The notes below the pieces were generated by a model. It ran no database searches. It was not told the DNA's origin and saw only the letters and a list, made by a program, of their open reading frames with translations. The translations under genes and the position numbers were made by a program. Positions 252 to 52,460 of a stretch of 64,000 nucleotides of DNA are shown here, piece after piece (positions within the stretch are counted from its first letter, which is position 1; the number at the start of each line of letters is the position of its first letter). Source of the stretch: Candidatus Aenigmatarchaeota archaeon (lineage in GTDB: Archaea; Aenigmatarchaeota; Aenigmatarchaeia; Aenigmatarchaeales; JACQIB01); NCBI GenBank assembly GCA_016198755.1, contig JACQIB010000004.1, positions 170,913 to 234,912 of the forward strand. Reading direction: 5' to 3'.

Positions 252-2453
252 TTAGAAAAATTTGTGGAAAAATTCTATAATCAAAGATTGTATATTTATT
301 TCTTTTTCAAATTTTAATGTAAAGGCTCCTGTTGCGCTGGAAGTTCTTGCCTGCTGTGCTGCAGCCAGCATTTCCGGTGAAACCCCATCCACAGCAGGAG
401 CTCCTGAATTATACCAGGCTTCCCAGCTTGTAAATCCTGCTGGAGGAGCCGGTTGATTATAAGGCTGTGGGGCAGGCATTGGAAGTGTTGTTGGAACAAT
501 TATTGTTGTGGAAGTGGTTGTTGTAACTGAAGGCAATAAAGGCTGGATTTGCTGTGCAGAGTGTGCAGCATTTACCCAATCCTGCGGTATCCCATCTCCT
601 GCAGGTGCTCCAGCATTATACCATTCCTGCCAGCTTGAGAAACCAACAGGAGCCTCGGGGATAGTAGAAGGAACAACTGGAGGAACTGTTGTGGGAATTG
701 GTGTAAATATTGTTGTTGGAACAGTTTGAACATTGTTTGTAACAGGAATTAATGTAGTTTGTGTGGTTGCGATGGACTCCCTTGCTCTTGTAACAATATC
801 GCTTGAAACCCCCTCAACAGCAGGAGCTCCTGAACTATACCAATCCTGCCAGCTCGAGAAACCTGCTGGAGGAGCTGGTTCCTGTTGAGCTGGAATAACA
901 GCTTTGTCTGACGGACAACCTTGAACCCAGCCTTCAGGAAGGCAGTTGTTTGGGAATGTTGAACAAACTAAACTAACAGGATTATAAGCCTGTGTTATAA
1001 CCTGCATACATTTCTGTAATATAACAGTGGTTGTTGTTACAGGCGGAAGCCCATGTGCCATAGCATAGACTTCACTTGGTACATCTGGTAGGTTAGGAGA
1101 TCCTGCTGACTGCCAGTCCTGCCATGAAGAAAACCCTTTCGGAGGCTGAAGATTGATAGATTTCTGTGCAAGCGAACGTGCAAAGTTCTCATAATCTGTC
1201 CAGCTTGCAAACCCTTCAGGAGGGGTTTGAGGCGGGGAACCAGGGATATAGGGCTTTCCAGCAGCTTCCCAGTCTGCAACAGAACTATATGGGAAAGAAG
1301 GATTTCCAGTTTTTAATCCCTCTGAAGAAACCATATCAGAAGGCGTTGGGACCGCTGTTAAGGTAGGTTCTGAACGCCTCTCAGGCATACTTTCTAAGTA
1401 TTTTTGCATATCAGCAAGCATTGTTTTCTTTTGCTCCAAATCAAAAGAGCTTAAGCTCTCTTCTGGTATACTTTTTATAAGCTGGTATATATTTTCTGCC
1501 TCTCTTATACCAACTCCTGTTTCAGTCGGAGACATAACCATTCCAGAATTAGCAAAAATCCTTGAACATTCCTCAGCTGTCTTTCCAGAACATTCAACAG
1601 GCCTGTCTTTCTCATAAGCTTCTTTTGCAGCTTTCTGCACAATCTCCTTCAGTGAAACAGTCTGGAAAACAGCAAAAGGCGTTGGATTATCCACTATTTT
1701 CTTATCAAGATCCATACAGGCTTGCTGATCTCCCTGAAACCCGCATTTTAATGCATTTTCACTGTTATGTACGCAAATATCCCTATATTCTTTAACAAGT
1801 ATAGCAGAACAGTCACACTTCCCTGAAGATACACAGTTCTGTACAACTCCAGTAACAGCCTGTTCAGAATCCTTCTCAACTGCTTTTACTTCACTCTCAA
1901 CAAACCTTCTTACCCCATCACTTGCTTTAGTTCCAGAACAATATGGGTCTGATTTAACGGCTTCTATGCTCTGTTTAGCAAGAGAACCGCAATATTCAGC
2001 AGCTCTTACAGCAGCTTCAGCTGAAACCATCATTTTCTCAGATCCTGCAATAGCTCTCTCAGAAAGCTCTTCTGTTGGCAAAGAATCTCTATTTTTCTGA
2101 ACAAAACGTATTACTTGATTTGATAAATCCTTTGCATTTTCAGCCAGCTGCGGCGGCAGTTCCCTTTGCGCAATTTCCATAGTTTCAGTTGAGTGCTGGA
2201 GAGCAATTTCAGACTCTGCTGGCTTTCCAGCTTCACTCATCGCACTAGCTTCATACAACCTTTCTTTCGCTATATCCATTGCAAGCAAAGCTCTTTCATC
2301 CCCTGCTGCTATTGACATTGCAATATTGTCCATGAAAACGTCCATCCCATATAGTATATTGTCAGGAGCAATTCCCCCCCTATTCTCCTGTGCTAATACA
2401 GGCATTCCTAAAACAAGTAAACTAACTAAAATCCCAGCAACTGCTTTTTGCAT
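252..2453 (-). CDS. Secreted repeat protein (733 aa). It has an N-terminal signal peptide, a Cys-rich middle region, and about six copies of a W-rich motif PPxGF(S/A/T)SWQ(D/E)W(Y)xxGAP, separated by Thr/Pro/Val-rich linkers.
   Basis: Long ORF. N-terminus MQKAVAGILVSLLVLGMPVLAQ is a typical signal peptide. The internal repeats are visible at both protein and DNA level (about 330-1260). No recognisable enzymatic motif. Confidence 0.55.
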   Translation of the reverse strand: MQKAVAGILVSLLVLGMPVLAQENRGGIAPDNILYGMDVFMDNIAMSIAAGDERALLAMDIAKERLYEASAMSEAGKPAESEIALQHSTETMEIAQRELPPQLAENAKDLSNQVIRFVQKNRDSLPTEELSERAIAGSEKMMVSAEAAVRAAEYCGSLAKQSIEAVKSDPYCSGTKASDGVRRFVESEVKAVEKDSEQAVTGVVQNCVSSGKCDCSAILVKEYRDICVHNSENALKCGFQGDQQACMDLDKKIVDNPTPFAVFQTVSLKEIVQKAAKEAYEKDRPVECSGKTAEECSRIFANSGMVMSPTETGVGIREAENIYQLIKSIPEESLSSFDLEQKKTMLADMQKYLESMPERRSEPTLTAVPTPSDMVSSEGLKTGNPSFPYSSVADWEAAGKPYIPGSPPQTPPEGFASWTDYENFARSLAQKSINLQPPKGFSSWQDWQSAGSPNLPDVPSEVYAMAHGLPPVTTTTVILQKCMQVITQAYNPVSLVCSTFPNNCLPEGWVQGCPSDKAVIPAQQEPAPPAGFSSWQDWYSSGAPAVEGVSSDIVTRARESIATTQTTLIPVTNNVQTVPTTIFTPIPTTVPPVVPSTIPEAPVGFSSWQEWYNAGAPAGDGIPQDWVNAAHSAQQIQPLLPSVTTTTSTTIIVPTTLPMPAPQPYNQPAPPAGFTSWEAWYNSGAPAVDGVSPEMLAAAQQARTSSATGAFTLKFEKEINIQSLIIEFFHKFF

Positions 2454-3518: not shown

Positions 3519-3604
3519 GCCCGGGTAGCTCAGCAGGAAGAGCGACTGGCTGTTAAATTGCGGAAACCAGTAGGTCGCAGGTTCGAGTCCTGCCTCGGGC
3601 GCCA
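3519..3604 (+). tRNA. tRNA-Asn(GTT) candidate with an insertion of about 10 nt (mini-intron) in the anticodon arm
   Basis: The sequence parses as acceptor GCCCGGG/CTCGGGC; D-arm GCTC-AGCAGGAA-GAGC; anticodon stem ACTGG/CCAGT enclosing 17 nt (CTGTTA A ATTGCGGAAA); T-arm GCAGG-TTCGAGT-CCTGC; G73 and an encoded CCA. If the intron sits at the canonical 37/38 site, the anticodon loop is CTGTTAA (GTT). Confidence 0.65.
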
Positions 3605-6508: not shown

Positions 6509-7779
6509 GCTATCCTATGCGGATAGAAGATATATTTAGGATGTCTTTGAACACAATTCTAAGCAGAAAACTAAGAAGCGGACTGACAATACTCGGAATT
6601 GTAATGGGTGTTGCAGCTGTTATAGCTCTTGTTTCTATTGGGCAGGGGTTGCAGGAGAGTGTTAACCAGCAGCTAAGCTCTCTGGGCGGAAACCTTGTAT
6701 TGATAACCCCAGGAAGTGAACGTGCAACACAGGGGTTTGGCTTTGCTGGTGGGTTTGGAGGGCAGAATTCAAAAACGCTTACTGATTCTGATTTGAGGAT
6801 AATAAAAATAATCCCTGGTATTTTGTATGCAACAGGGGTTGTTTCCGGATCTGTCTCACTCGAATATAACAGCCAGAAATCCGAATCAAGAGCACAGGGA
6901 GTTGAACCTGGTGTATGGGAACTTGTGCAGTCTGTTGACCTTGAATCCGGCAGGTTTCTTTCAAAGAGCGATCCAAATGGTGTTGTTATAGGCAACAGGG
7001 TTGCACACAGCCTTTTTAAAAAGGAAGTTGGAATAAACAGCCAGATAAAGATAAATAACAAAATTTTTCATGTTGTTGGTATATTGAAATCTACTGGAGG
7101 TTTTATTGGCGGTTCGGGAGATAACAGCGTAATAATATCCAAAACCAGCGCAGATGACATAAATCTTGTAAGTTCAGGGGAAAAGGACAGCTATTCTACA
7201 ATATATGTAAAAACCACAGAAGGTTCTGATACAGAGACAGTTTCAGGCTATATACAAGACAGGCTTAGGTCAAATCATCATGTTTCAGAGCAAAACCAAG
7301 ACTTTACAATTAACACTTCCAAAACAATACAGGCGCGCGTTGGTACGATAATAGGCACGATAACTCTTTTTCTTGGAGGTATAGCTGCAATTTCTCTGTT
7401 TGTTGGTGGGGTTGGGATAGCAAACACAATGTTCACATCAGTAATGGAAAGGACAAAGGAAATAGGCGTTCTTAAGTCCCTTGGAATGGCTAATTCTGAT
7501 ATTCTAAGGATGATACTTGTAGAGTCAGCTCTGTTAGGCCTTATGGGCGGTGCAATAGGAGTATTCTTCGGCACTCTTGCTTCTTCTATTATTTCCAGTA
7601 TAGGTGGTATTTCTCCTGCTGCAGGTCCGCTTGCAGGAAGGGCTGTAGGAACCTATGTATCTCTGGAAATGGTTTTGTTCGCTCTTTTATTTTCTGTTTG
7701 CGTGGGCGCTGTTTCAGGCTTGTTCCCAGCAAGGCGTGCAGCAAACTTACAGCCAGTTGAAGCTTTGAGATACGAGTAG
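6505..7779 (+). CDS. ABC transporter permease, FtsX/MacB family (periplasmic MacB-type domain plus 4 TM helices)
   Basis: N-terminal TM; large extracytoplasmic domain; C-terminal FtsX-like TM bundle (ITLFLGGIAAISLFVGGVGIANTMFTSVMERTKEIGVLKSLG). Confidence 0.85.
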   Translation: MSYPMRIEDIFRMSLNTILSRKLRSGLTILGIVMGVAAVIALVSIGQGLQESVNQQLSSLGGNLVLITPGSERATQGFGFAGGFGGQNSKTLTDSDLRIIKIIPGILYATGVVSGSVSLEYNSQKSESRAQGVEPGVWELVQSVDLESGRFLSKSDPNGVVIGNRVAHSLFKKEVGINSQIKINNKIFHVVGILKSTGGFIGGSGDNSVIISKTSADDINLVSSGEKDSYSTIYVKTTEGSDTETVSGYIQDRLRSNHHVSEQNQDFTINTSKTIQARVGTIIGTITLFLGGIAAISLFVGGVGIANTMFTSVMERTKEIGVLKSLGMANSDILRMILVESALLGLMGGAIGVFFGTLASSIISSIGGISPAAGPLAGRAVGTYVSLEMVLFALLFSVCVGAVSGLFPARRAANLQPVEALRYE

Positions 7780-11048: not shown

Positions 11049-12194
11049 CTATTTTTTAGGAGATTGTTTTCTGGAAGCTAACTCGGCTTCCCTGAGTGTT
11101 GTTTCCATCGCATCCAAAGCTGTCTGGAATTTTGTCATATTCTTGTCAAATATCGAAAGCCTTTCATTCCATGCCGGTATAGAAAACTCTACATAAGGTT
11201 TTCCAAGAACTCCGAGTGCAGATTTCCTATTTGACCTTCCGGGGAAGCACAGGCTAGCATAATTTTCCACTTCCTCTCCAAGACCGAATGCAGTTGCATA
11301 CACAAGATATTTGTCCCAAATAATCAAAAATTTGGGTGGCCTCTCCTTTAATATGCTGAAATCTTTGATGAACATTTTCAACCCACTCCATTTTAGGAAA
11401 TGTTCAGTTCCAAGTTCTGTGTAACACATTAAATATTTCTTATATTTTGAAACAAGAATTCCATAAAATAGAGCTATAAAAAAGAGACTGAAAATTGAGA
11501 AACCTATAGTGGGGATAAATAAAAAGAAGGCAAGGATGAAGTTCAGAATAAAAATTATTTTGGTCCAATATACAAACCTTTCTAAGCCTGTAAAATCTAC
11601 TAGCTTCAGTTTTTTAACATCCTCTTCTACAAGTTTTTCCCAGTTTTCAATGAATAATTCATATTTTGGGTTCAAATACACCTTCAAAGCCAGTTGGCTC
11701 ATTTGTATACTATCGCTGACCATGTGTTCAGTATACAACTTATAGACAGCTTCCTCATAGGTCTTTAATCCCGGCTTTGAAGTCCTTTTCAGTCTAGTAA
11801 TTAAGTAGTCCTTCTCCTTTCCGAATATTTTCAAGTATTTCTTGTGCCCAATTTCCTCTATCTTAAAATACCCCCTTCTAACCAAATCCAGAAATGTAGC
11901 TGTTATATCATCCTCCTTCAAGTACATATCCAGAATAAAAGAAGCTATAGCAGGTCCATAATCATATGGTATTTCCCTAACATAAGCCGATTCCGTTATC
12001 TCTGGCTTTTTCCCATACTTCTTTGAAAGAGAAAAAAATAATAGTGTTTCCAAACCAGCAAAGATAAAAAACAAGGCCAACGCAAAAGAAAATGATAACA
12101 AGAATATTATTCCGAGACCTGAAGCAATAGCTCCTATACAAAAGAACATAAACCATAAAGAGAAGAACAACAGTACAAAAATCACTGGACGCAT
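11049..12194 (-). CDS. Polytopic membrane protein (DUF2207-like)
   Basis: Multiple TM segments flank a soluble loop. The C-terminal LIIWDKYLVYATAFGL motif resembles the DUF2207 family. Confidence 0.5.
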   Translation of the reverse strand: MRPVIFVLLFFSLWFMFFCIGAIASGLGIIFLLSFSFALALFFIFAGLETLLFFSLSKKYGKKPEITESAYVREIPYDYGPAIASFILDMYLKEDDITATFLDLVRRGYFKIEEIGHKKYLKIFGKEKDYLITRLKRTSKPGLKTYEEAVYKLYTEHMVSDSIQMSQLALKVYLNPKYELFIENWEKLVEEDVKKLKLVDFTGLERFVYWTKIIFILNFILAFFLFIPTIGFSIFSLFFIALFYGILVSKYKKYLMCYTELGTEHFLKWSGLKMFIKDFSILKERPPKFLIIWDKYLVYATAFGLGEEVENYASLCFPGRSNRKSALGVLGKPYVEFSIPAWNERLSIFDKNMTKFQTALDAMETTLREAELASRKQSPKK

Positions 12195-12212
12195 AAGTAT
12201 ATTTATGATTCC

Positions 12213-13955
12213 CTATAATAAAACCTTTGTACTCCTGAAAACCTTTTTCAGTTCTGTAAAAGGCAGGGTGTTTACAACATCCTTCTGCTCAAGCCAGCCT
12301 CTGCGCGCTGTTTTTATTCCCAGTTCAGTATACCAGAAAGTATTTTTATCATGTGAGTCTGTGTCAATTGCAAACTTGCAGTCGAATTCTCTTGCAAGCC
12401 TTATGTGATCATCCTTCAAGTCCAGCCTGTTTGGCTGCGAATCTATTTCTAAAACAACTCCCAGTTCAGCAGCTTTTGCAAAAACCTTTTTCAAATCCAA
12501 ATCAAAAGGCTTTCTCCGTGTTATTAACCTTCCTGTTGGGTGGCCCAAAATTGAAATTAATCCTGTTTCCATTGCTGCTAGCACGCGAGCAGTGATTTTT
12601 TCCTCCGGAGCTTTAAACCCTGAATGAATAGAACCAACAACAATATCCAGCTTTTTCAGCAAACTATCAGGATAGTCAAGAGATCCGTTTCCTTTAATGT
12701 CTACCTCACTTCCAGAAAGAATTTTTATTCCTTTAATTTTCTTCCTTGCCTCCTCTATTGCTTTCAGGTATTTTATCAGCCTCTCCTCGCTCATACCATG
12801 CGCTTGGTACTCTGATTTTGAATGGTCCGTTATTGCAATATACTCATACCCTAGGGATTTGGCTGCAAGAGCCATCTCCTCAATAGAATGGTTTCCATCA
12901 GACCAGTTTGTGTGCAAATGCAAATCCCCGCGGATATCGGAAAGTTTAACAAGTGCTGGCAGTTTTCCTGCAGCCGCAGCTTCAATCTCCCCATGATTCT
13001 CTCTCATCTCAGGCTCTATCCAGTGCAGCCCCAAAGTTTTGTAAACTTCCTCTTCTGTTTTTCCAGCCAATTGCTTTCCAGTTTTCCTGTCAAATAACCC
13101 ATATTCGGAGAGTTTATACCCCTTTGCAATAGCCATTGTCCTAAGCTCTACATTATGATCCATGTTTCCTGTAAAATACTGAAGAGCAGCTCCATAGCTT
13201 TCAGCTGGAAGTACCCTCAAGTCAGCCTGCAGCCCATTTTTCAGGACAACAGTGCTTTTTGTTGGCCCTTTAGAAAGAACCCTCCCAACTTCAGAAAGTG
13301 TTGTGAAAACTTCCATTACAGCAGCAGGCTTCCTGCTTATAACCAAAATATCCAAATCCCCCACAGTTTCCTTCCCCCTTCTTGTTGAACCAGCAATTTC
13401 CGCCTGTTCTACAGCCGGATTTTTCCTTAATTTTTCAACTATTTGCTTTGCAATCGGGAGCGCCTCGCCCAGCAAATAGCGTTCTTTGCTTTTCTTCAGC
13501 ATATCCACAGACTGCAGAATATTTTTTTCAGATTTTTCCCCGAAACCAGGCAAGTTTCTTAATTTCCCTGCTTTTGCAGCAGCAGCTAAATCCTGCACTG
13601 TTTTGACTTTTAGTTTCTTGTAAAGGAAAATAGCTTTCCTCGGCCCAATACCTTCCAGTTTCATTAGATTCATCAACCCTTCAGGTATCTTCTTTCCCAG
13701 CTGTTCTATCTTATTTATTCTTCCGGTTTTCAAATACTCCTCTATATTCGAGGAAATTGTTGCCCCAACCCCTGGTATCTCCTGCAGAGCTTTCACTCCC
13801 CCCTGCTTGTAAACTTCAGAAACCTCTGTAGGCAGGCTATCCAATACTCTGGCTACCTTCCTGTAAGCTATAGGCTCCCATTTTACTTCTAAAATATCCA
13901 GCATATCTGCTATTTCGTACAGCAGAGCAGCTATCTCTTTATTGGCTGAAGGCAT
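12213..13955 (-). CDS. polX: DNA polymerase X family protein with a C-terminal PHP phosphoesterase domain
   Basis: N-terminal HhH; nucleotidyltransferase motif GSTRRGKETVGDLDILV; C-terminal PHP motifs (LHLHTNWSDG, ITDHS). Confidence 0.9.
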   Translation of the reverse strand: MPSANKEIAALLYEIADMLDILEVKWEPIAYRKVARVLDSLPTEVSEVYKQGGVKALQEIPGVGATISSNIEEYLKTGRINKIEQLGKKIPEGLMNLMKLEGIGPRKAIFLYKKLKVKTVQDLAAAAKAGKLRNLPGFGEKSEKNILQSVDMLKKSKERYLLGEALPIAKQIVEKLRKNPAVEQAEIAGSTRRGKETVGDLDILVISRKPAAVMEVFTTLSEVGRVLSKGPTKSTVVLKNGLQADLRVLPAESYGAALQYFTGNMDHNVELRTMAIAKGYKLSEYGLFDRKTGKQLAGKTEEEVYKTLGLHWIEPEMRENHGEIEAAAAGKLPALVKLSDIRGDLHLHTNWSDGNHSIEEMALAAKSLGYEYIAITDHSKSEYQAHGMSEERLIKYLKAIEEARKKIKGIKILSGSEVDIKGNGSLDYPDSLLKKLDIVVGSIHSGFKAPEEKITARVLAAMETGLISILGHPTGRLITRRKPFDLDLKKVFAKAAELGVVLEIDSQPNRLDLKDDHIRLAREFDCKFAIDTDSHDKNTFWYTELGIKTARRGWLEQKDVVNTLPFTELKKVFRSTKVLL

Positions 13956-24875: not shown

Positions 24876-25005
24876 TGGTGGACTCGGTGGGATTTTCTCC
24901 AAACCCTTTTGGGGTTTGCAAAGACCTTTTCGGAAAAGGGATTTGCTTTGAACCCACAACCTCTTGCTTGCAAAGCAAGCGATCTTCCAGTTGATCTACG
25001 AGCCC
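24876..25005 (-). tRNA. tRNA-Ala(TGC) with a roughly 54-nt intron in the T-loop (non-canonical position about 59/60); CCA encoded
   Basis: The minus strand reads GGGCTCG TA GATC AACTGGAA GATC G CTTGC TTTGCAA GCAAG AGGTT GTGGG TTCAAA[G-intron-T] CCCAC CGAGTCC A CCA. The exons assemble into a perfect 76-nt cloverleaf. Confidence 0.8.
24904..24953. repeat. 50-nt sequence identical to 52268-52317 (core of the T-loop intron shared by tRNA-Ala and tRNA-Leu)
   Basis: Exact match: cccttttggggtttgcaaagaccttttcggaaaagggatttgctttgaac. Confidence 0.9.
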
Positions 25006-29912: not shown

Positions 29913-30701
29913 TCATGCTAGAAGCTTCGAAAAAGGTTTTATAATATTAATCAACTTATACACTGATTGATTAACAAGAACATCATTATATTCTTCCTTT
30001 ACAATATCTATAGCATCTTTTTGTATATTGCCTTCTAATATTGCTATCAATCTTACATAGGGATATTTTTGTCGAATTTTCATAGCTCTATAAGCAAGTT
30101 CTACGGCTTGCAAACGTTTCCTATAATTGAAATTCATTTGCTTTACCTCAATTATTATTTTGGGTATATTTTCAGAAGGCAAGGCAAAATCTACTACAAA
30201 ATTTCTATTGGTCCTCACTAGGGCATGAAACTTATGTGAAATGCCCAATTTCTGAAAGATTTCTATATATCTTTTTTCTTGTTCTGTAGGACCTTTTATT
30301 ATTGCACCTTTCAGAGATCTTTCTTTAGACGCCTTTAAACTCATTTTTCTTGCGCGTTCAGTATCTCTAAAAGTGCCGCGTTCGGAAATTTCATAATACC
30401 TGCGTATTAAGATTTCCCTAGAAGGAATTCTTTGCATGCATTTAATTTCTTCAAACACTTTGTTTATTACTTTTTCGTCTACACTTTTTCTAAATCCTTT
30501 CTCTATATTATAGACTGTGCCTTGACTCTTCCCTATAAACTTTGCTAATTGCCACTGACTCATATTCAATATTAAACGTAGAATCAGCAATCTCTGCGGT
30601 TTTGTATATATAATTTCAGGTTTCAGTTTCCTTAAACTGTCTGTTGTTCTATATACTTCATCACAGAGATTTTTTAATTTTAGCTTGTTTATGGTAATCA
30701 C
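29913..30701 (-). CDS. Intron-encoded putative homing endonuclease: N-terminal XRE-type HTH plus C-terminal PD-(D/E)XK nuclease-like domain (262 aa)
   Basis: HTH MSQWQLAKFIGKSQGTVYNIEKG; nuclease motif FVVDFALP...IIIEVKQ (D...E-x-K). Sits entirely inside the rRNA intron, with the stop overlapping the exon junction. Confidence 0.55.
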   Translation of the reverse strand: MITINKLKLKNLCDEVYRTTDSLRKLKPEIIYTKPQRLLILRLILNMSQWQLAKFIGKSQGTVYNIEKGFRKSVDEKVINKVFEEIKCMQRIPSREILIRRYYEISERGTFRDTERARKMSLKASKERSLKGAIIKGPTEQEKRYIEIFQKLGISHKFHALVRTNRNFVVDFALPSENIPKIIIEVKQMNFNYRKRLQAVELAYRAMKIRQKYPYVRLIAILEGNIQKDAIDIVKEEYNDVLVNQSVYKLINIIKPFSKLLA

Positions 30702-30757
30702 CGATATTATATTATATCGGTAACTACTATTTAACCCTTTACAGAGCTTCTAACTTT
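29916..30757 (-). mobile_element. 16S rRNA intron (about 840 nt) in the 3' domain, carrying an HTH + PD-(D/E)XK ORF
   Basis: Exon sequence ...GGCGAACGTCAT is interrupted and resumes ...GAATTCGTTCGCCGAATACGTCCCTG (the equivalent of E. coli position about 1360-1380). Confidence 0.7.
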
Positions 30758-31059
30758 ATGACGTTCGCCTACTATGAATTCCGGCTTCATGTGGGCGAGT
30801 TGCAGCCCACAATCTGGACTAAGATTGGGTTTAGGGGGTTAGCTTTGCCTTTCGGCATTGCATCCCATTGTCCCAACCATTGTAGGACGCGTGTAGCCCA
30901 GAGAATTCGGGCCGTACGGACCTACCGTCGCCCACTCCTTCCTCTGCTTTAGCAGCAGCGGTCCCGCCATTGTGCTCTCTCCCCGGAGGGAAAGGTGGCA
31001 AATGGCAGCGTGGGTCTCGCTCGTTAACGGACTTAACCGCACGCCTCAAGGTACGAGCT

Positions 31060-31219
31060 TTCTCGTCTTAGCAGCCCTCATACAAAACATTATCTTACTT
31101 TTCTCTATGTTTTACATAATTAGCATTCCACCAACGTCGTATCAGTATTAAGTTTGAATACTGGTTGCATATCGTTGTTGAAATTTTTCAATATCCCAAT
31201 TAAATTGAGACTGCCAAGA
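31060..31219 (-). other. Insertion of about 155 nt (ORF-less intron, likely BHB-type) in the 16S near the E. coli 1050-1070 region
   Basis: The conserved CATGGCCGTCGTCAGCTCGTACC is split: ...catggccatcgtca | 150 nt AT-rich | agctcgtaccttgagg. Flanking cttggcag/ctgctaag can pair to close the insert. Confidence 0.6.
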
Positions 31220-31763
31220 TGACGATGGCCATGCAACTCCTCTCAGCTTGTCTGGTAAACCCGTTAGGCTGACCCTCATTCTGCTGTCTTCTCTGGTAAG
31301 ATGTCCGGTGTTAAATCCAATTGAACCGCATCCTCCACTCATTGTGTGTTCCCCCGCCAATTCCTTTAAGTTTCAGCCTTGCGGCCGTACTCCCCAGGTG
31401 GCCCGCTTAACATCTACACTTCGGCACTGCATGTTCACGTAGAACGTGCAACACCAAGCGGGCATCGTTTACGGCTGGGACTACTGGGGTATCTAATCCC
31501 AATCGCTCCCCCAGCTGTCGCCCCTCACTGTCAGACTCGTTTTCGGTAGACGCCTTCGCCACAGGTGGTCCTCCACGGATTAAAGGATTTAACCCCTACA
31601 CGTGGAATACCTCTACCGTCTCCCGATCTCAAGGCTTGGAGTATCTCCAGCGCGCCTGACAGTTAGCTGCCAGATTTCACCAGAGACTTTCAAGCCCAGC
31701 TACGGGCGCTTTAGACCCAATAAACGCGATAGCCATTTGGACCGCGGGTATTACCGCGGCGGC

Positions 31764-31795
31764 GTGTGCGAACAAAGTCTACTGACTTTGAACAT
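31764..31795 (-). other. Hairpin insertion of about 30 nt inside the universal 515F/530-loop sequence of the 16S
   Basis: GTGCCA | tgttcaaagtc-agtag-gactttgttcgcaca | CGCCGCCGCGGTAATAC. The insert forms a 7-bp perfect stem, caaagtc/gactttg. Confidence 0.6.
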
Positions 31796-32249
31796 GGCAC
31801 CCGTCTTACCCAGTCCTTATTCGCCTAGGTTTTTAGCCTAAGCAAAAGCTCGTGCAAAGCACGAGCACTCGAGGTTCCCTTCTCACACGCTAATGCATTG
31901 GAAAGTTTTCGCTCCTGCTGCGACCCGTAGGCCCTGCGCTCATGTCTCAGAGCGCATCTGGAGGCTCACACTCTCATGTCCCCTACCCGTCACAGGCTTG
32001 TCAGTTTTATAAAGCAGGTAGCTTATGCTACCAAAAATTATTTTGGCAAACTAAGTTTGCCTATGCACTTTACACTGACAACAACCTGATAGGCCGCAGT
32101 CCCATTCTATGGCGCCGGAGCTTTCACTTTTGGTGCATTCCAGCATCCAAAAACTATGGGGCATTAGCCTCACTTTTGCGTTCACTTTCAAAAGAAAGTG
32201 GAATTCGCAAGATTATTCCCCACCATAGAGTAGGTTAACTACGTGTTAC

Positions 32250-32921
32250 TCAGCAGTGCGCCGAGGGCAAGAGCGGATTAAATAGAACCTTACCAGTCTT
32301 TTTACAATAAAAATAGTTTTTAAATTCCTTAGAAAGACATCTTACTTTTTCTAACTTTAGTGGATGTTTAAATTTTATTATTCTACAAAACTTTCTAAAA
32401 TTTTTAGCACCTTTTATTCGCCACCAATATACATCGTTTTTTCCATAAACTTTTGATACATGAATACCATATGTTTCTAATAATTCTTTACTCCATATGC
32501 AAAAATCCTTAGATTTAATTTGTAGTTCTATTACAGGATATTCATATATAGACATCATGGTCTTTCTCTTATACCTTTGGACTTCTTTGAATACGGAACA
32601 ATCACCATCAAAAAATCCTATAAGAAAATTCATCTTTTCTTTTCTATTTATGTGCACTGGTGGAGTGATGTCATGAGACTTTTTCCCTGGTTTTATATGA
32701 TAAAGTCTCTTAAATTTTTCGTATAGCTTACGATCACTTACCCTTATCTGAAATACTCTTTTTCTTAATTTGTAAGTAACCTTGTTTTTTGCAAATTTTT
32801 GAAGATTTTTTACTATATCATCTCTGAAGCGCTTGTTATTTGTGTAGACATAGACATACGGTCTATATTTTTCTAAATGACCATCTGCAGCTATTAAACC
32901 GGCCATATAAGAAAATTTCAT
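32250..32921 (-). CDS. LAGLIDADG-family homing endonuclease (double-motif, intron-encoded)
   Basis: Two LAGLIDADG motifs are present: MAGLIAADGHL and LIGFFDGDCSV. Confidence 0.85.
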   Translation of the reverse strand: MKFSYMAGLIAADGHLEKYRPYVYVYTNNKRFRDDIVKNLQKFAKNKVTYKLRKRVFQIRVSDRKLYEKFKRLYHIKPGKKSHDITPPVHINRKEKMNFLIGFFDGDCSVFKEVQRYKRKTMMSIYEYPVIELQIKSKDFCIWSKELLETYGIHVSKVYGKNDVYWWRIKGAKNFRKFCRIIKFKHPLKLEKVRCLSKEFKNYFYCKKTGKVLFNPLLPSAHC

Positions 32922-38388: not shown

Positions 38389-38548
38389 TGGGGCCCGGAC
38401 CGAGATTTTCCCGCCCCACCTGAGGGGGTAGGGCTGTAGGGGGAAACTTCCCCCTGAGCTTTGAACTCGGGTCTAGGGCTGTCTGCTCCGCACGCCTTAA
38501 GCGCGCTGGGCCACAGGCCCACATGCTAACCACTACACCATCCGGGCC
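38389..38548 (-). tRNA. tRNA-His(GTG) with a genome-encoded G-1 and two introns (about 30 nt after position 37; about 54 nt in the T-loop); CCA encoded
   Basis: The minus strand reads G(-1) GCCCGGA TG GTGT AGTGGTTA GCAT G TGGGC CTGTGG [30-nt intron] A GCCCT AGAC CCGAG TTCAAAG [54-nt intron] CTCGG TCCGGGC C CCA. G-1:C73 is the hallmark of tRNA-His. Confidence 0.7.
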
Positions 38549-50144: not shown

Positions 50145-50213
50145 CAAAAGATATCCATGGAAGTTATAACTATAATACTTTGGTTTTTATACTTAATGCA
50201 TAAAGCTTCTCTT

Positions 50214-51212
50214 ATGATTGAAATTGATGGAAATGATGCTGGAGGGCAGCTTGTCAGAACCGCTGTTTCTCTGAGCGCCATAACAGGAAAGGCTTTTAGG
50301 ATTGTTAACATACGCGGGGCGCGACCCCAGCCTGGACTGAAAGCACAGCATATGGAAGGTATTGGAACTGTGGCAGAACTCTGTTCTGCAAAAGTTTCGG
50401 GGTTGGAGTTAGGCTCAAAAGAGCTGGAATTTATTCCTGGAAAGCTGGAACCAAAAAATTTGGAGGTTAAAATCTCTACAGCAGGTTCAATTGGATTAGT
50501 TTTGCAGTCTCTGTTAATTGATGCAACAAAGTTTGAAAAGCCTATTAATGTTAAGTTTTCAGGCGGTGGAACATGGGGAAAGTGGGCCCCACCCATGCTT
50601 TATCTGGAAAAGGTTTTTCTGCCCTGCTTATGTTCAGGTTTAAAAACAAAAGTTAAGAGAGAAGGTTTCTATCCTCGTGGTGGGGCAGAAGTAGAGGTTG
50701 AAATAACTCCAATTAAAGTAAAATCTATAGAGATTCTGGAGCATGGAAAGCTGCTGGAACTGAATATTTTCTCTGTTGCTGCCCAATTGGAAGGGAAAAA
50801 AGTAGCTGAGAGGCAGGCTGAGGCTGCGCGCAGTTTCCTAGAGGAGAGGATTGGGGTAAAGGTTTCTGTGAAAACAACCTATTCTGCAGCAGAAAATCCT
50901 GGCTCTGGTATTTTGATTGTTGGGAAGTGTGAAAATTCAGTGATTGGAGCTGACTCTATTGGAGAGCTAAATGTTCCAGCAGAGGAGGTTGGAAAGAGAG
51001 CTGGAAAGGATTTTTTTAATGAGTTTGCAAACGGGGCTGTAGACAGGCACTGCGCTGACATGCTTTTGCCCTATATTGCTCTGGCTGGAAAGGGAAGAAT
51101 AAAAACATCAGAGATAACCCAGCATATTGTTACCAGCATAGAACTAATAGAAAAGTTTCTGCCTGTAAAGTTTTCGATAGACAGGGAAAAGAAGATTATT
51201 TCTGTGCTATGA
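50214..51212 (+). CDS. rtcA: RNA 3'-terminal phosphate cyclase
   Basis: N-terminus MIEIDGNDAGGQLVRTAVSLSAITGKAFRI is the typical RtcA start. The conserved His-containing adenylylation region is consistent with RtcA (...GSGILIVGKCENSVIGADSIGE...DRHCADML). Confidence 0.8.
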   Translation: MIEIDGNDAGGQLVRTAVSLSAITGKAFRIVNIRGARPQPGLKAQHMEGIGTVAELCSAKVSGLELGSKELEFIPGKLEPKNLEVKISTAGSIGLVLQSLLIDATKFEKPINVKFSGGGTWGKWAPPMLYLEKVFLPCLCSGLKTKVKREGFYPRGGAEVEVEITPIKVKSIEILEHGKLLELNIFSVAAQLEGKKVAERQAEAARSFLEERIGVKVSVKTTYSAAENPGSGILIVGKCENSVIGADSIGELNVPAEEVGKRAGKDFFNEFANGAVDRHCADMLLPYIALAGKGRIKTSEITQHIVTSIELIEKFLPVKFSIDREKKIISVL

Positions 51213-52218: not shown

Positions 52219-52243
52219 GTTTGGTTTATTTTAGAAAATAGTT

Positions 52244-52427
52244 TGGTGCGGGAGGCAAGATTTTCAGCCCTTTTGGGGTTTGCAAAGACCTTTTCGGAAA
52301 AGGGATTTGCTTTGAACTTGCGTAGGGACTAACCCACTAGGTTTCTCATGCAGGTCTCTGAGCAACGCCTGCTCCTAAGCTTCGCTTAAATCATCTAGCG
52401 CCTTTGACCTGGCTGGGCCACTCCCGC
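52244..52427 (-). tRNA. Type II tRNA (Leu; anticodon TAG or GAG depending on intron parse) with at least two introns: one or two in the anticodon arm (about 44 nt total) and about 48 nt in the T-loop; CCA encoded
   Basis: Acceptor GCGGGAG/CTCCCGC with A73 plus CCA. D-arm TGGCCCAGCCAGGTCAAAGGCG is Leu-like. Long variable arm GGGTTAGTCCC. T-arm GCAAG-TTCAAAG[intron]-CTTGC. A CTTAGGA anticodon-loop-like heptamer is present in the interrupted anticodon region. Confidence 0.65.
52268..52317. repeat. 50-nt sequence identical to 24904-24953 (shared tRNA T-loop intron core)
   Basis: Exact match. Confidence 0.9.
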
Positions 52428-52460
52428 AAGAAAAGTATAGGGCAGAAGGTAATAAAAGCC

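Follow-up and report, generated by a model that had tools for sequence, protein, structure and literature searches.

The 64,000-nt window analysed here comes from a Candidatus Aenigmarchaeota (DPANN) MAG, whose NCBI protein entries MBI40156xx-157xx its proteins match exactly, and contains a locus of 184 nt in which the recognizable parts of a leucine tRNA lie apart from one another. The question raised by this locus is whether it represents a working gene and, if so, which segments have to be removed from its transcript and which anticodon results. It escapes the standard tools. The gene was not called by ARAGORN in a scan of the window, which found a single tRNA elsewhere, and the locus has no Rfam match at the gathering threshold; at E<=10 it returns noise alone, in the form of snoRNA, miRNA and CRISPR-repeat matches far under their cut-offs.

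We consider it about 85% probable that the locus is a functional tRNA-Leu gene, transcribed as a single RNA, with four exons and three BHB-type introns at positions 30/31, 37/38 and 59/60. The class II pre-tRNA (52427..52244, minus strand, 184 nt including the encoded CCA) begins with 5′ GCGGGAG UG GCC... and ends with ...CUUGC CUCCCGC A CCA 3′, the acceptor stem being GCGGGAG/CTCCCGC followed by A73. The D stem has 3 bp and a long D loop, and the long variable arm places the gene in class II. The first-pass annotation had taken the D arm and the variable arm as those of a type II, Leu-like tRNA in at least three exons; we find both arms and four exons, arranged as follows.

52450..52458, minus strand: TATA-box-like element CTTTTATTA, read from the sequence, with its centre ~27 nt upstream of tRNA position 1
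52395..52427, minus strand: exon 1, positions 1-30, with the acceptor 5′ strand, the D arm and the anticodon-stem 5′ strand up to G30
52381..52394, minus strand: intron 1, 14 nt, ATGATTTAAGCGAA, at 30/31, from the strict BHB scan and the MFE fold
52374..52380, minus strand: exon 2, the 7-nt micro-exon GCTTAGG, positions 31-37 (anticodon TAG, G37), from ARAGORN on the spliced sequence
52343..52373, minus strand: intron 2, 31 nt, at the canonical site 37/38, from the BHB scan and the MFE fold of the intron-1-spliced RNA
52311..52342, minus strand: exon 3, positions 38-59, with A38, the anticodon-stem 3′ strand, the variable arm, the T-stem 5′ strand and T-loop TTCAAA
52261..52310, minus strand: intron 3, 50 nt, in the T loop at 59/60, the best strict BHB match, also in the MFE fold
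52244..52260, minus strand: exon 4, positions 60-76, with T60, the T-stem 3′ strand, the acceptor 3′ strand, A73 and CCA
52235..52238, minus strand: T-run, 6 nt past the CCA, read from the sequence

Removal of the three intervening segments leaves 89 nt which ARAGORN calls tRNA-Leu(tag) and draws as a flawless cloverleaf, with the long variable arm, D arm, A73 and Leu anticodon of a class II archaeal tRNA-Leu. The anticodon TAG, previously read from an embedded CTTAGGA heptamer, is indeed the main anticodon of the gene, and the heptamer is present together with the two hairpins described around it (TAAGC-GAA-GCTTA and GAGCA-GGCGT-TGCTC). The CTAGA and CCTAG halves previously assigned to the anticodon stem are present as well, though 52 nt apart and not 51. 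The stem restored by splicing is CTAGG/CCTAG, with the pair G31-C39, in a tRNA-Leu(UAG) carrying G37, A73 and the encoded CCA. In a scan of genome contigs with the 5′ half pattern, the matches listed were intronless methanogen and thaumarchaeal tRNA-Leu genes, with no close relatives among them. Among the matches listed, the exon-1 half is identical or nearly identical to that of intronless archaeal genes, and those with the same 5′ half have the stem CTAGG/CCTAG and G31.

All pieces of the tRNA are contiguous within the 184 nt behind one promoter-like box, and the joining in trans that defines split and tri-split tRNAs is not found. By its sequence and position, CTTTTATTA could act as a working archaeal promoter; GCTTTTATT is kept at the same distance upstream in the orthologs of two related genomes (L131 and L133). 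The T-run downstream is likely an archaeal transcription stop.

Splice motifs and their predicted order of removal

Every possible intron of 11-120 nt in the Leu precursor was scored for BHB geometry, defined as a 4-bp central helix in which each strand is followed by a 3-nt bulge, cut after its nucleotide 2. The first-pass annotation had proposed BHB prediction as a check, and a BHB-type motif was obtained at each of the three sites, with bulges around a 4-bp helix whose excision leaves the canonical cloverleaf. In the primary transcript, introns 3 and 1 rank first and second among strict BHB motifs. The T-loop intron was thus correctly anticipated; it measures 50 nt, lies at 59/60 (t118-167 of the precursor) and gives the best strict match. 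Its helix TTCA/TGAA is stacked on the 5-bp T stem, with a 3′ bulge AA|T and an irregular 5′ bulge, and is of the hBH type. Intron 1 (t34-47) is of the bulge-helix-loop type: helix CGCT/AGCG, bulges AG|A and AA|G, and an apical loop of 7 nt. This helix is part of the MFE fold, with a pair probability of ~0.5, and interrupts the tRNA at 30/31, which we take to be a previously reported intron site.

Intron 2 (t55-85) has the helix CTTA/TGAG, which includes one G-U pair, and the bulges GG|A and AA|A, enclosed by an outer helix of 7 bp and followed by the inner helix GCAGG/CCTGC (5 bp plus one extra A). Its BHB score is 18 in the primary transcript and rises to 29 once intron 1 has been removed, when it becomes the top candidate (the next one scores 24); the MFE fold of the RNA spliced at intron 1 then shows the full hBHBh′ motif. 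Unconstrained folding of the precursor already gives an MFE structure with the central helices and bulges of all three introns. Each intron accordingly has a motif of its own, and two of the three positions are kept in a divergent homolog, L125, which is described below.

The splice motifs of this gene are relaxed, in that intron 1 nearly lacks an inner helix, one surplus A stays unpaired in intron 2 and the 5′ bulge of intron 3 is irregular. The scan also returned a high-scoring "intron" t69-150, formed by pairing between introns 2 and 3, which we rejected since its excision destroys the tRNA. A C/D-box guide RNA within the introns was considered as well and discarded, no C box being visible by eye.

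In archaeal tRNA splicing, bulge cuts by the endonuclease EndA leave a 2′,3′-cyclic phosphate and a 5′-OH, and RtcB ligates the ends. Applied to this gene, the precursor would be transcribed from the TATA-like promoter ~27 nt upstream, and EndA would cut the 3-nt bulges flanking each 4-bp central helix, that is at t33/34, t47/48, t54/55, t85/86, t117/118 and t167/168. An RtcB-type ligase would then join the exons into the 89-nt tRNA-Leu(UAG) with G37, A73 and encoded CCA, with the predicted spliced junction GGCGCUAG|GCUUAGG|ACCUAG. The introns are probably removed in a fixed order. The outer helix of intron 1 competes with the central helix of intron 2, since both draw on nucleotides C32-U34, and intron 1 interrupts the anticodon stem, which is itself the outer helix of the canonical-intron motif. 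Together with the small size of the anticodon exon (7 nt), this suggests that intron 1 is excised before intron 2, in which case the micro-exon would never be released.

Relatives and the T-loop intron

Comparison with tRNA-Leu genes of related genomes had also been proposed at the outset and turned out to be informative at two distances. The gene is flanked by the gene of a 323-aa P-loop protein and by a small ferredoxin-like gene, with RtcA one gene further. Syntenic orthologs are found in L131 and L133, where the neighbour protein is 67-69% identical to that of the window and the flanking genes, measured for those two genomes, show 72-86% DNA identity. L140, whose RtcA is 86% identical, also has the gene. 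Residues 1-117, including introns 1 and 2, are 100% identical in the window, L131, L133 and L140, and the exons are invariant. Upstream flank and T-loop intron are associated in all four possible haplotype combinations among these four genomes, so that recombination has taken place within the gene. With an anticodon region identical throughout, there is no covariation to be observed among close relatives, and covariation comes from L125 only. Synteny based on RtcA was informative for the closest relatives only (L142-L145 have no tRNA-Leu nearby), and a search with the ferredoxin neighbour gave one homolog only. The RtcA gene, ~1 kb from the tRNA gene, encodes an RNA 3′-phosphate cyclase; RtcA is not the ligase.

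L125 is a 1-kb contig from Hainich groundwater and the one true homolog among nine matches in a metagenome scan, the others being coding sequence or partial tRNA duplicates of Methanoregula. Scans of viral contigs gave five chance matches without tRNA context, and a further viral scan gave none. The exons of L125 differ from those of the window in the acceptor stem, D loop, variable arm and T arm. Its introns lie at the same positions, 30/31 and 37/38; they are unrelated in sequence and form full BHB motifs with compensating helices. The micro-exon heptamer set between these two unrelated introns is identical to that of the window. L125 has no T-loop intron.

The T-loop intron has a different history from the anticodon-region introns. 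In the window and L131 it is of one type, while an unrelated intron occupies the same 59/60 site in L133 and L140, with compensating changes between those two. The intron of the window contains a core that recurs in a second tRNA gene nearby:

52268..52310, minus strand: repeated 43-nt core of intron 3, identical in the tRNA-Ala T-loop intron
3519..3604: tRNA-Asn(GTT), with a 10-nt intron at 37/38
24876..25005, minus strand: tRNA-Ala(TGC), with a T-loop intron (24893..24946) at 59/60; the spliced sequence is tRNA-Ala(tgc)
38547..38389: tRNA-His(GTG), with a canonical intron and a T-loop intron

The core is identical at 43 of 43 positions in the tRNA-Ala(TGC) T-loop intron, which has the top BHB score for that gene, and a similar element, which on inspection by eye agrees with some three-quarters of the core, is found in the D-loop of a tRNA-Tyr gene of L144. 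Near-identical intron sequence in different tRNA genes is the mark of a transposed intron, and to judge by these sequences the Leu T-loop intron behaves as a member of an intron family that moves between tRNA genes of this lineage. Intron sharing of this kind also explains why short-read contigs break inside such introns. A fifth tRNA gene lies just outside the window, with a T-loop intron tail at its end. The intron of the tRNA-His gene holds an anticodon-like hairpin that cannot be used.

All four tRNA genes of the window contain introns, and their spliced products restore perfectly. ARAGORN missed three of the four and labelled the intron-containing tRNA-Asn "Leu(taa)". A crude scan for acceptor and T arms gave mainly false positives, yet it exposed the tRNA-His gene. 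In genomes of this type, tRNA finders under-count or mis-name tRNAs, which bears on inferences of MAG completeness and of codon capacity.

Other readings and a second anticodon heptamer

Several other readings of the locus have to be weighed against a gene with introns at 30/31, 37/38 and 59/60. The earlier proposal of two introns in the anticodon arm is correct as to their existence, while BHB geometry shifts their sites from 31/32 and 38/39 to 30/31 and 37/38. The difference at the second site is without consequence for the product, since repeated A residues at the second intron leave the mature sequence unchanged whether the cut is at 37/38 or at 38/39, and the RNA spliced at 31/32 and 38/39, with the stem CTAGA/CCTAG and anticodon TAG, is still called tRNA-Leu(tag) by ARAGORN. 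However, it retains an A31-C39 mismatch where 30/31 gives G31-C39; the helix CGCT/AGCG with its bulges AG|A and AA|G fixes the cuts at t33/34 and t47/48; the intronless homologous tRNA-Leu genes among the matches listed have G31; and L125 shares the 30/31 geometry. We therefore regard introns at 31/32 and 38/39 as very improbable. Even less can be said for a single long intron at 31/32 that would yield the anticodon GAG, as had been offered as a second parse. A TGAGAA string does lie directly upstream of CCTAG, but the spliced products have an 8-nt loop or read as Ser(aga), never as Leu(gag), and no BHB candidate of the scan supports the junctions. The TGAG fits better as the intron-side strand of the canonical intron's central helix, and in L125 its place is taken by TGGG, which cannot encode GAG. 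On these grounds the GAG parse is refuted by the sequence, and we give it practically no weight.

The failure of standard finders to detect the locus would be accounted for if it were a pseudogene in decay or a tRNA gene that insertions had disabled. Such a reading would also be compatible with the folding energy of the precursor, which is unremarkable in comparison with shuffled sequences (z = -1.41); with so ordinary a z-score the case for the gene has to be made from structure and comparison and not from energy. It is difficult to see, however, how decay would leave exactly three BHB-bounded segments whose excision restores a flawless cloverleaf with the Leu identity elements (A73 and the long variable arm), or exons that are invariant in four genomes despite diverged flanks. 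The gene also has a promoter-like box, an encoded CCA and a T-run, and the other tRNA genes of the window are likewise intron-containing and all restore perfectly. We thus judge inactivation to be highly unlikely and retain the three-intron tRNA-Leu(UAG) gene as our reading.

This reading may nevertheless be incomplete. Intron 2 contains a second heptamer, absent from the first-pass annotation, which could provide another anticodon:

52366..52369, minus strand: GGCG in intron 2, candidate alternative 3′ splice helix, pairing with exon-1 CGCT and followed by the bulge TT|G
52357..52363, minus strand: GCTCAGA in intron 2, candidate alternative micro-exon (anticodon CAG, A37), from the product call described below

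GCTCAGA (t65-71) consists of G31 plus an anticodon loop with CAG. It is preceded by GGCG and 2 nt, which could pair with exon-1 CGCT in place of AGCG and 2 nt, and the BHB scan lists the corresponding intron t34-64 with a score of 14. Between its CTCA and the final TGAG the pairing is perfect, which would delimit a 14-nt bulge-helix-loop intron resembling intron 1. The three-intron gene might accordingly be extended to one with two outputs, in which alternative BHB splicing of one precursor gives either tRNA-Leu(UAG) or tRNA-Leu(CAG). On path A, t34-47 and t55-85 would be removed and GCUUAGG kept, giving tRNA-Leu(UAG) (predicted sequence GGCGCUAGGCUUAGGACCUAG, junction k-mer GGCGCTAGGCTTAGGACCTAGTGGG). 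On path B, t34-64 and t72-85 would be removed and GCUCAGA kept, giving tRNA-Leu(CAG) (GGCGCUAGGCUCAGAACCUAG, junction k-mer GGCGCTAGGCTCAGAACCTAGTGGG). Two mutually exclusive folds would steer EndA and the ligase to one product or the other.

The arrangement is present here and in L125, and ARAGORN reads the path B product of each as tRNA-Leu(cag). In L125 the two heptamers occur in the same order, each after GGCG and 2 nt, with a spacer that differs in length and sequence (4 nt in L125 vs 10 nt in the window), and the final helix strand TGGG pairs with CTTA and CTCA alike. The fold of path B lies just 2 kcal/mol above that of path A, the TAAGC-GAA-GCTTA hairpin forming the inner helix of its long intron. 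Although path A makes no use of the 13-nt loop that carries GCTCAGA, this loop does not vary among four genomes that have seen turnover of the T-loop intron. The combination of A37 with the anticodon CAG is natural in intronless Methanolobus-type tRNA-Leu genes among the matches listed. In composition-preserving shuffles the two-heptamer configuration arose by chance 400 times in 2,000,000 (2e-4) for the window and 137 times in 2,000,000 (7e-5) for L125, in a test that was designed post hoc, after the pattern had been seen. On the other hand, path A is thermodynamically favoured, with pair probabilities of ~0.5 and 0.12 vs 0.11 and 0.03 for path B. The two heptamers could also be what is left of a tandem duplication that took in the 3′ splice site and anticodon (repeat period of 11 nt in L125 and of 17 nt in the window), their invariance in close genomes could stem from recombination, and an anticodon-like hairpin occurs in the tRNA-His intron too, where it is unusable. 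The use of path B is suggested by sequence and predicted folds, and we consider a second output possible but rather doubtful.

Comparison with known disrupted tRNA genes

Multi-intron tRNA genes are already known in archaea, in the Thermoproteales, ARMAN-2 and the Asgard archaea. In our literature search we found no description of multi-intron or disrupted tRNA genes in Aenigmarchaeota; with the present gene, this DPANN lineage joins those in which tRNA genes are heavily disrupted by several introns and tRNA introns are mobile.

The Thermoproteales, described by Sugahara et al. 2007/2008 and summarised in PMC4033280 and PMC4090602, offer a close precedent: a tRNA gene may carry as many as three short introns of BHB or relaxed-BHB type at canonical and non-canonical sites, removed by EndA and a ligase. 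Similar introns occur there in different tRNA genes, and such shared sequences are described as the signature of intron transposition (PMC4033280). The Thermoproteales are hyperthermophilic crenarchaea, whereas the host here is a DPANN archaeon, mesophile-like and of 40% GC. The Leu gene further differs in that two of its introns bracket a 7-nt anticodon micro-exon, and in that the anticodon-region introns are invariant in relatives while the T-loop intron has been replaced.

In the Asgard Atabeyarchaeia and Freyarchaeia, tRNAs have up to four introns (Valentin-Alvarado et al. 2024, PMC11291895). There, introns are found in 92-95% of tRNA genes, with several in more than half, frequently at non-canonical positions; the genes listed include tRNA-Leu(TAG) with three observed introns, and tRNAscan-type tools under-call such genes. 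These lineages belong to another superphylum in which a different EndA type is expected, and their gene lengths do not match the locus described here, which does not therefore come from the same organism. The Asgard study analyses neither individual splice motifs nor alternative anticodon exons.

ARMAN-2 (Micrarchaeota; Fujishima et al. 2011, PMC3239211) is also a DPANN archaeon, although of another phylum. The sections of that report dealing with its tRNAs describe genes with two introns and T-loop introns at 59/60 with relaxed hBH and BHL motifs; the ARMAN-2 EndA is of the epsilon2 type, and in vitro a DPANN EndA has been shown to cut the relaxed hBH motif at 59/60. Among the unusual tRNAs highlighted in those sections, none combines three introns with an anticodon micro-exon. 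DPANN EndAs with an L3 loop have been associated with disrupted tRNA genes (PMC5829648).

For a gene with two outputs, the closest parallel is provided by the split and tri-split tRNAs, such as tRNA-Glu of Nanoarchaeum equitans and tRNA-Gly of Caldivirga maquilingensis, in which, as summarised in PMC4033280, anticodon pieces are swapped on a common body by means of BHB motifs and EndA, so that synonymous isoacceptors are produced. The likeness concerns the dual micro-exon design only. The split tRNAs join separate transcripts in trans, whereas here a single transcript holds both candidate pieces, and alternative folding would select between them in cis. A choice in cis between anticodons through alternative folds was not described in the literature that we searched. 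If path B is used, this would be the first case of a tRNA precursor whose anticodon is selected by alternative splicing in cis and a new economy of tRNA genes for a small genome, and it would form a bridge between ordinary tRNAs with introns and the "jigsaw" tRNAs that Caldivirga and Nanoarchaeum assemble by trans-splicing.

T-loop introns and their turnover

One T-loop intron core of the window is shared between genes of different isotype. The 43-nt type-A core of the Leu(TAG) intron recurs with 100% identity in the T-loop intron of tRNA-Ala(TGC), differences being confined to the 3′ tails, while that of tRNA-His(GTG) represents a third sequence type.

Window 24876..25005, minus strand: tRNA-Ala(TGC), T-loop intron 24893..24946 (54 nt) at 59/60
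Window 38389..38547, minus strand: tRNA-His(GTG), introns 38481..38510 (canonical, 30 nt) and 38406..38459 (T-loop, 54 nt)

The His gene was detected neither by ARAGORN nor by Rfam. It has C73 and an encoded G-1, and a hairpin resembling an anticodon arm (GCGCG-CTTAAGG-CGTGC) lies within its canonical intron. G3:U70 is present in tRNA-Ala(TGC).

Related archaea carry orthologous Leu(TAG) genes, and a more distant relative (L144) has a tRNA-Tyr with a large intron.

L133 4430..4615, minus strand: orthologous Leu(TAG) gene
L140 about 7345..7530, minus strand: orthologous Leu(TAG) gene
L144 about 938..1098, minus strand: large D-loop intron in a tRNA-Tyr(GTA) gene

The T-loop introns of L133 and L140 differ from each other by compensating changes and are unrelated to that of the window, yet they occupy the identical site (59/60). 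Among the window, these two contigs and a third relative's contig, L131, all four combinations of upstream-flank type and T-intron type are seen, which indicates recombination within the tRNA gene. A similar copy of the type-A core (CCCAATCCCTTTTCGCAGAAAAGGTCTAGGGCTCACCCCAAAAGG) lies inside the D-loop intron of the L144 tRNA-Tyr, so that the element occupies differing sites across genes.

Intron complementarity and contig breaks

Within the Leu(TAG) precursor, intron 2 (TTGCTCAGAGACC) and the core of the T-loop intron (GGTCTTTGCAA) share a complementary stretch of about 11 bp, interrupted by a 2-nt bulge.

Window 52354..52364 and 52279..52290, minus strand: complementary segments, t64-74 and t138-149 of the precursor

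Since the identical core is also found in the Ala gene, this match in sequence is probably due to chance. The same pairing gives rise to a high-scoring but spurious bulge-helix-bulge candidate.

Logan short-read contigs repeatedly break within T-loop introns (the L001/L002 end, at window 52288, and the end of L132); repetition of the intron cores in the genome is the presumed cause. Another such contig, L146, opens in a further tRNA gene, about 5 kb past the window's end.

L146 1..90: T-loop intron tail and 3′ end of a tRNA gene, ...GCTGGAAAA|TCTCGG CTGGCGC A CCA

Other loci

Window 3519..3604, plus strand: tRNA-Asn(gtt), 10-nt mini-intron 3556..3565 at 37/38
Window 30689..32314, minus strand: archaeal 16S rRNA match
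Window 50157..51212, plus strand: RNA 3′-terminal phosphate cyclase (RtcA) gene
L131 8792..9664 and 11591..12972: LAGLIDADG-type ORF and intein-bearing dehydratase homolog

ARAGORN labels the first of these tRNA-Leu(taa), yet its body is class I and removal of the mini-intron yields a clean tRNA-Asn(gtt); the isotype call is thus an artefact of the intron. At 1626 nt, the 16S rRNA match exceeds its 1478-position model and so includes about 150 nt of insertions, which could be an intron or expansion segments. RtcA, which makes the 2′,3′-cyclic phosphate ends used by the RtcB ligase, is encoded one gene from tRNA-Leu, an arrangement retained in L131, L133 and L140; this closeness may be a coincidence. 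In L131 the LAGLIDADG-type ORF is inserted between sugar-nucleotide genes, and intein-splicing matches in the 651-aa dTDP-glucose dehydratase homolog imply that it carries an intein, unlike the window's copy. Finally, in Methanoregula-type loci (L092, L115, L123, L128 and L130) the tRNA-Leu 5′ half is partly duplicated: the copy extends to about position 40 and lies approximately 60-100 nt upstream of a complete tRNA-Leu gene, resembling an attachment site that was duplicated by an integrated element.
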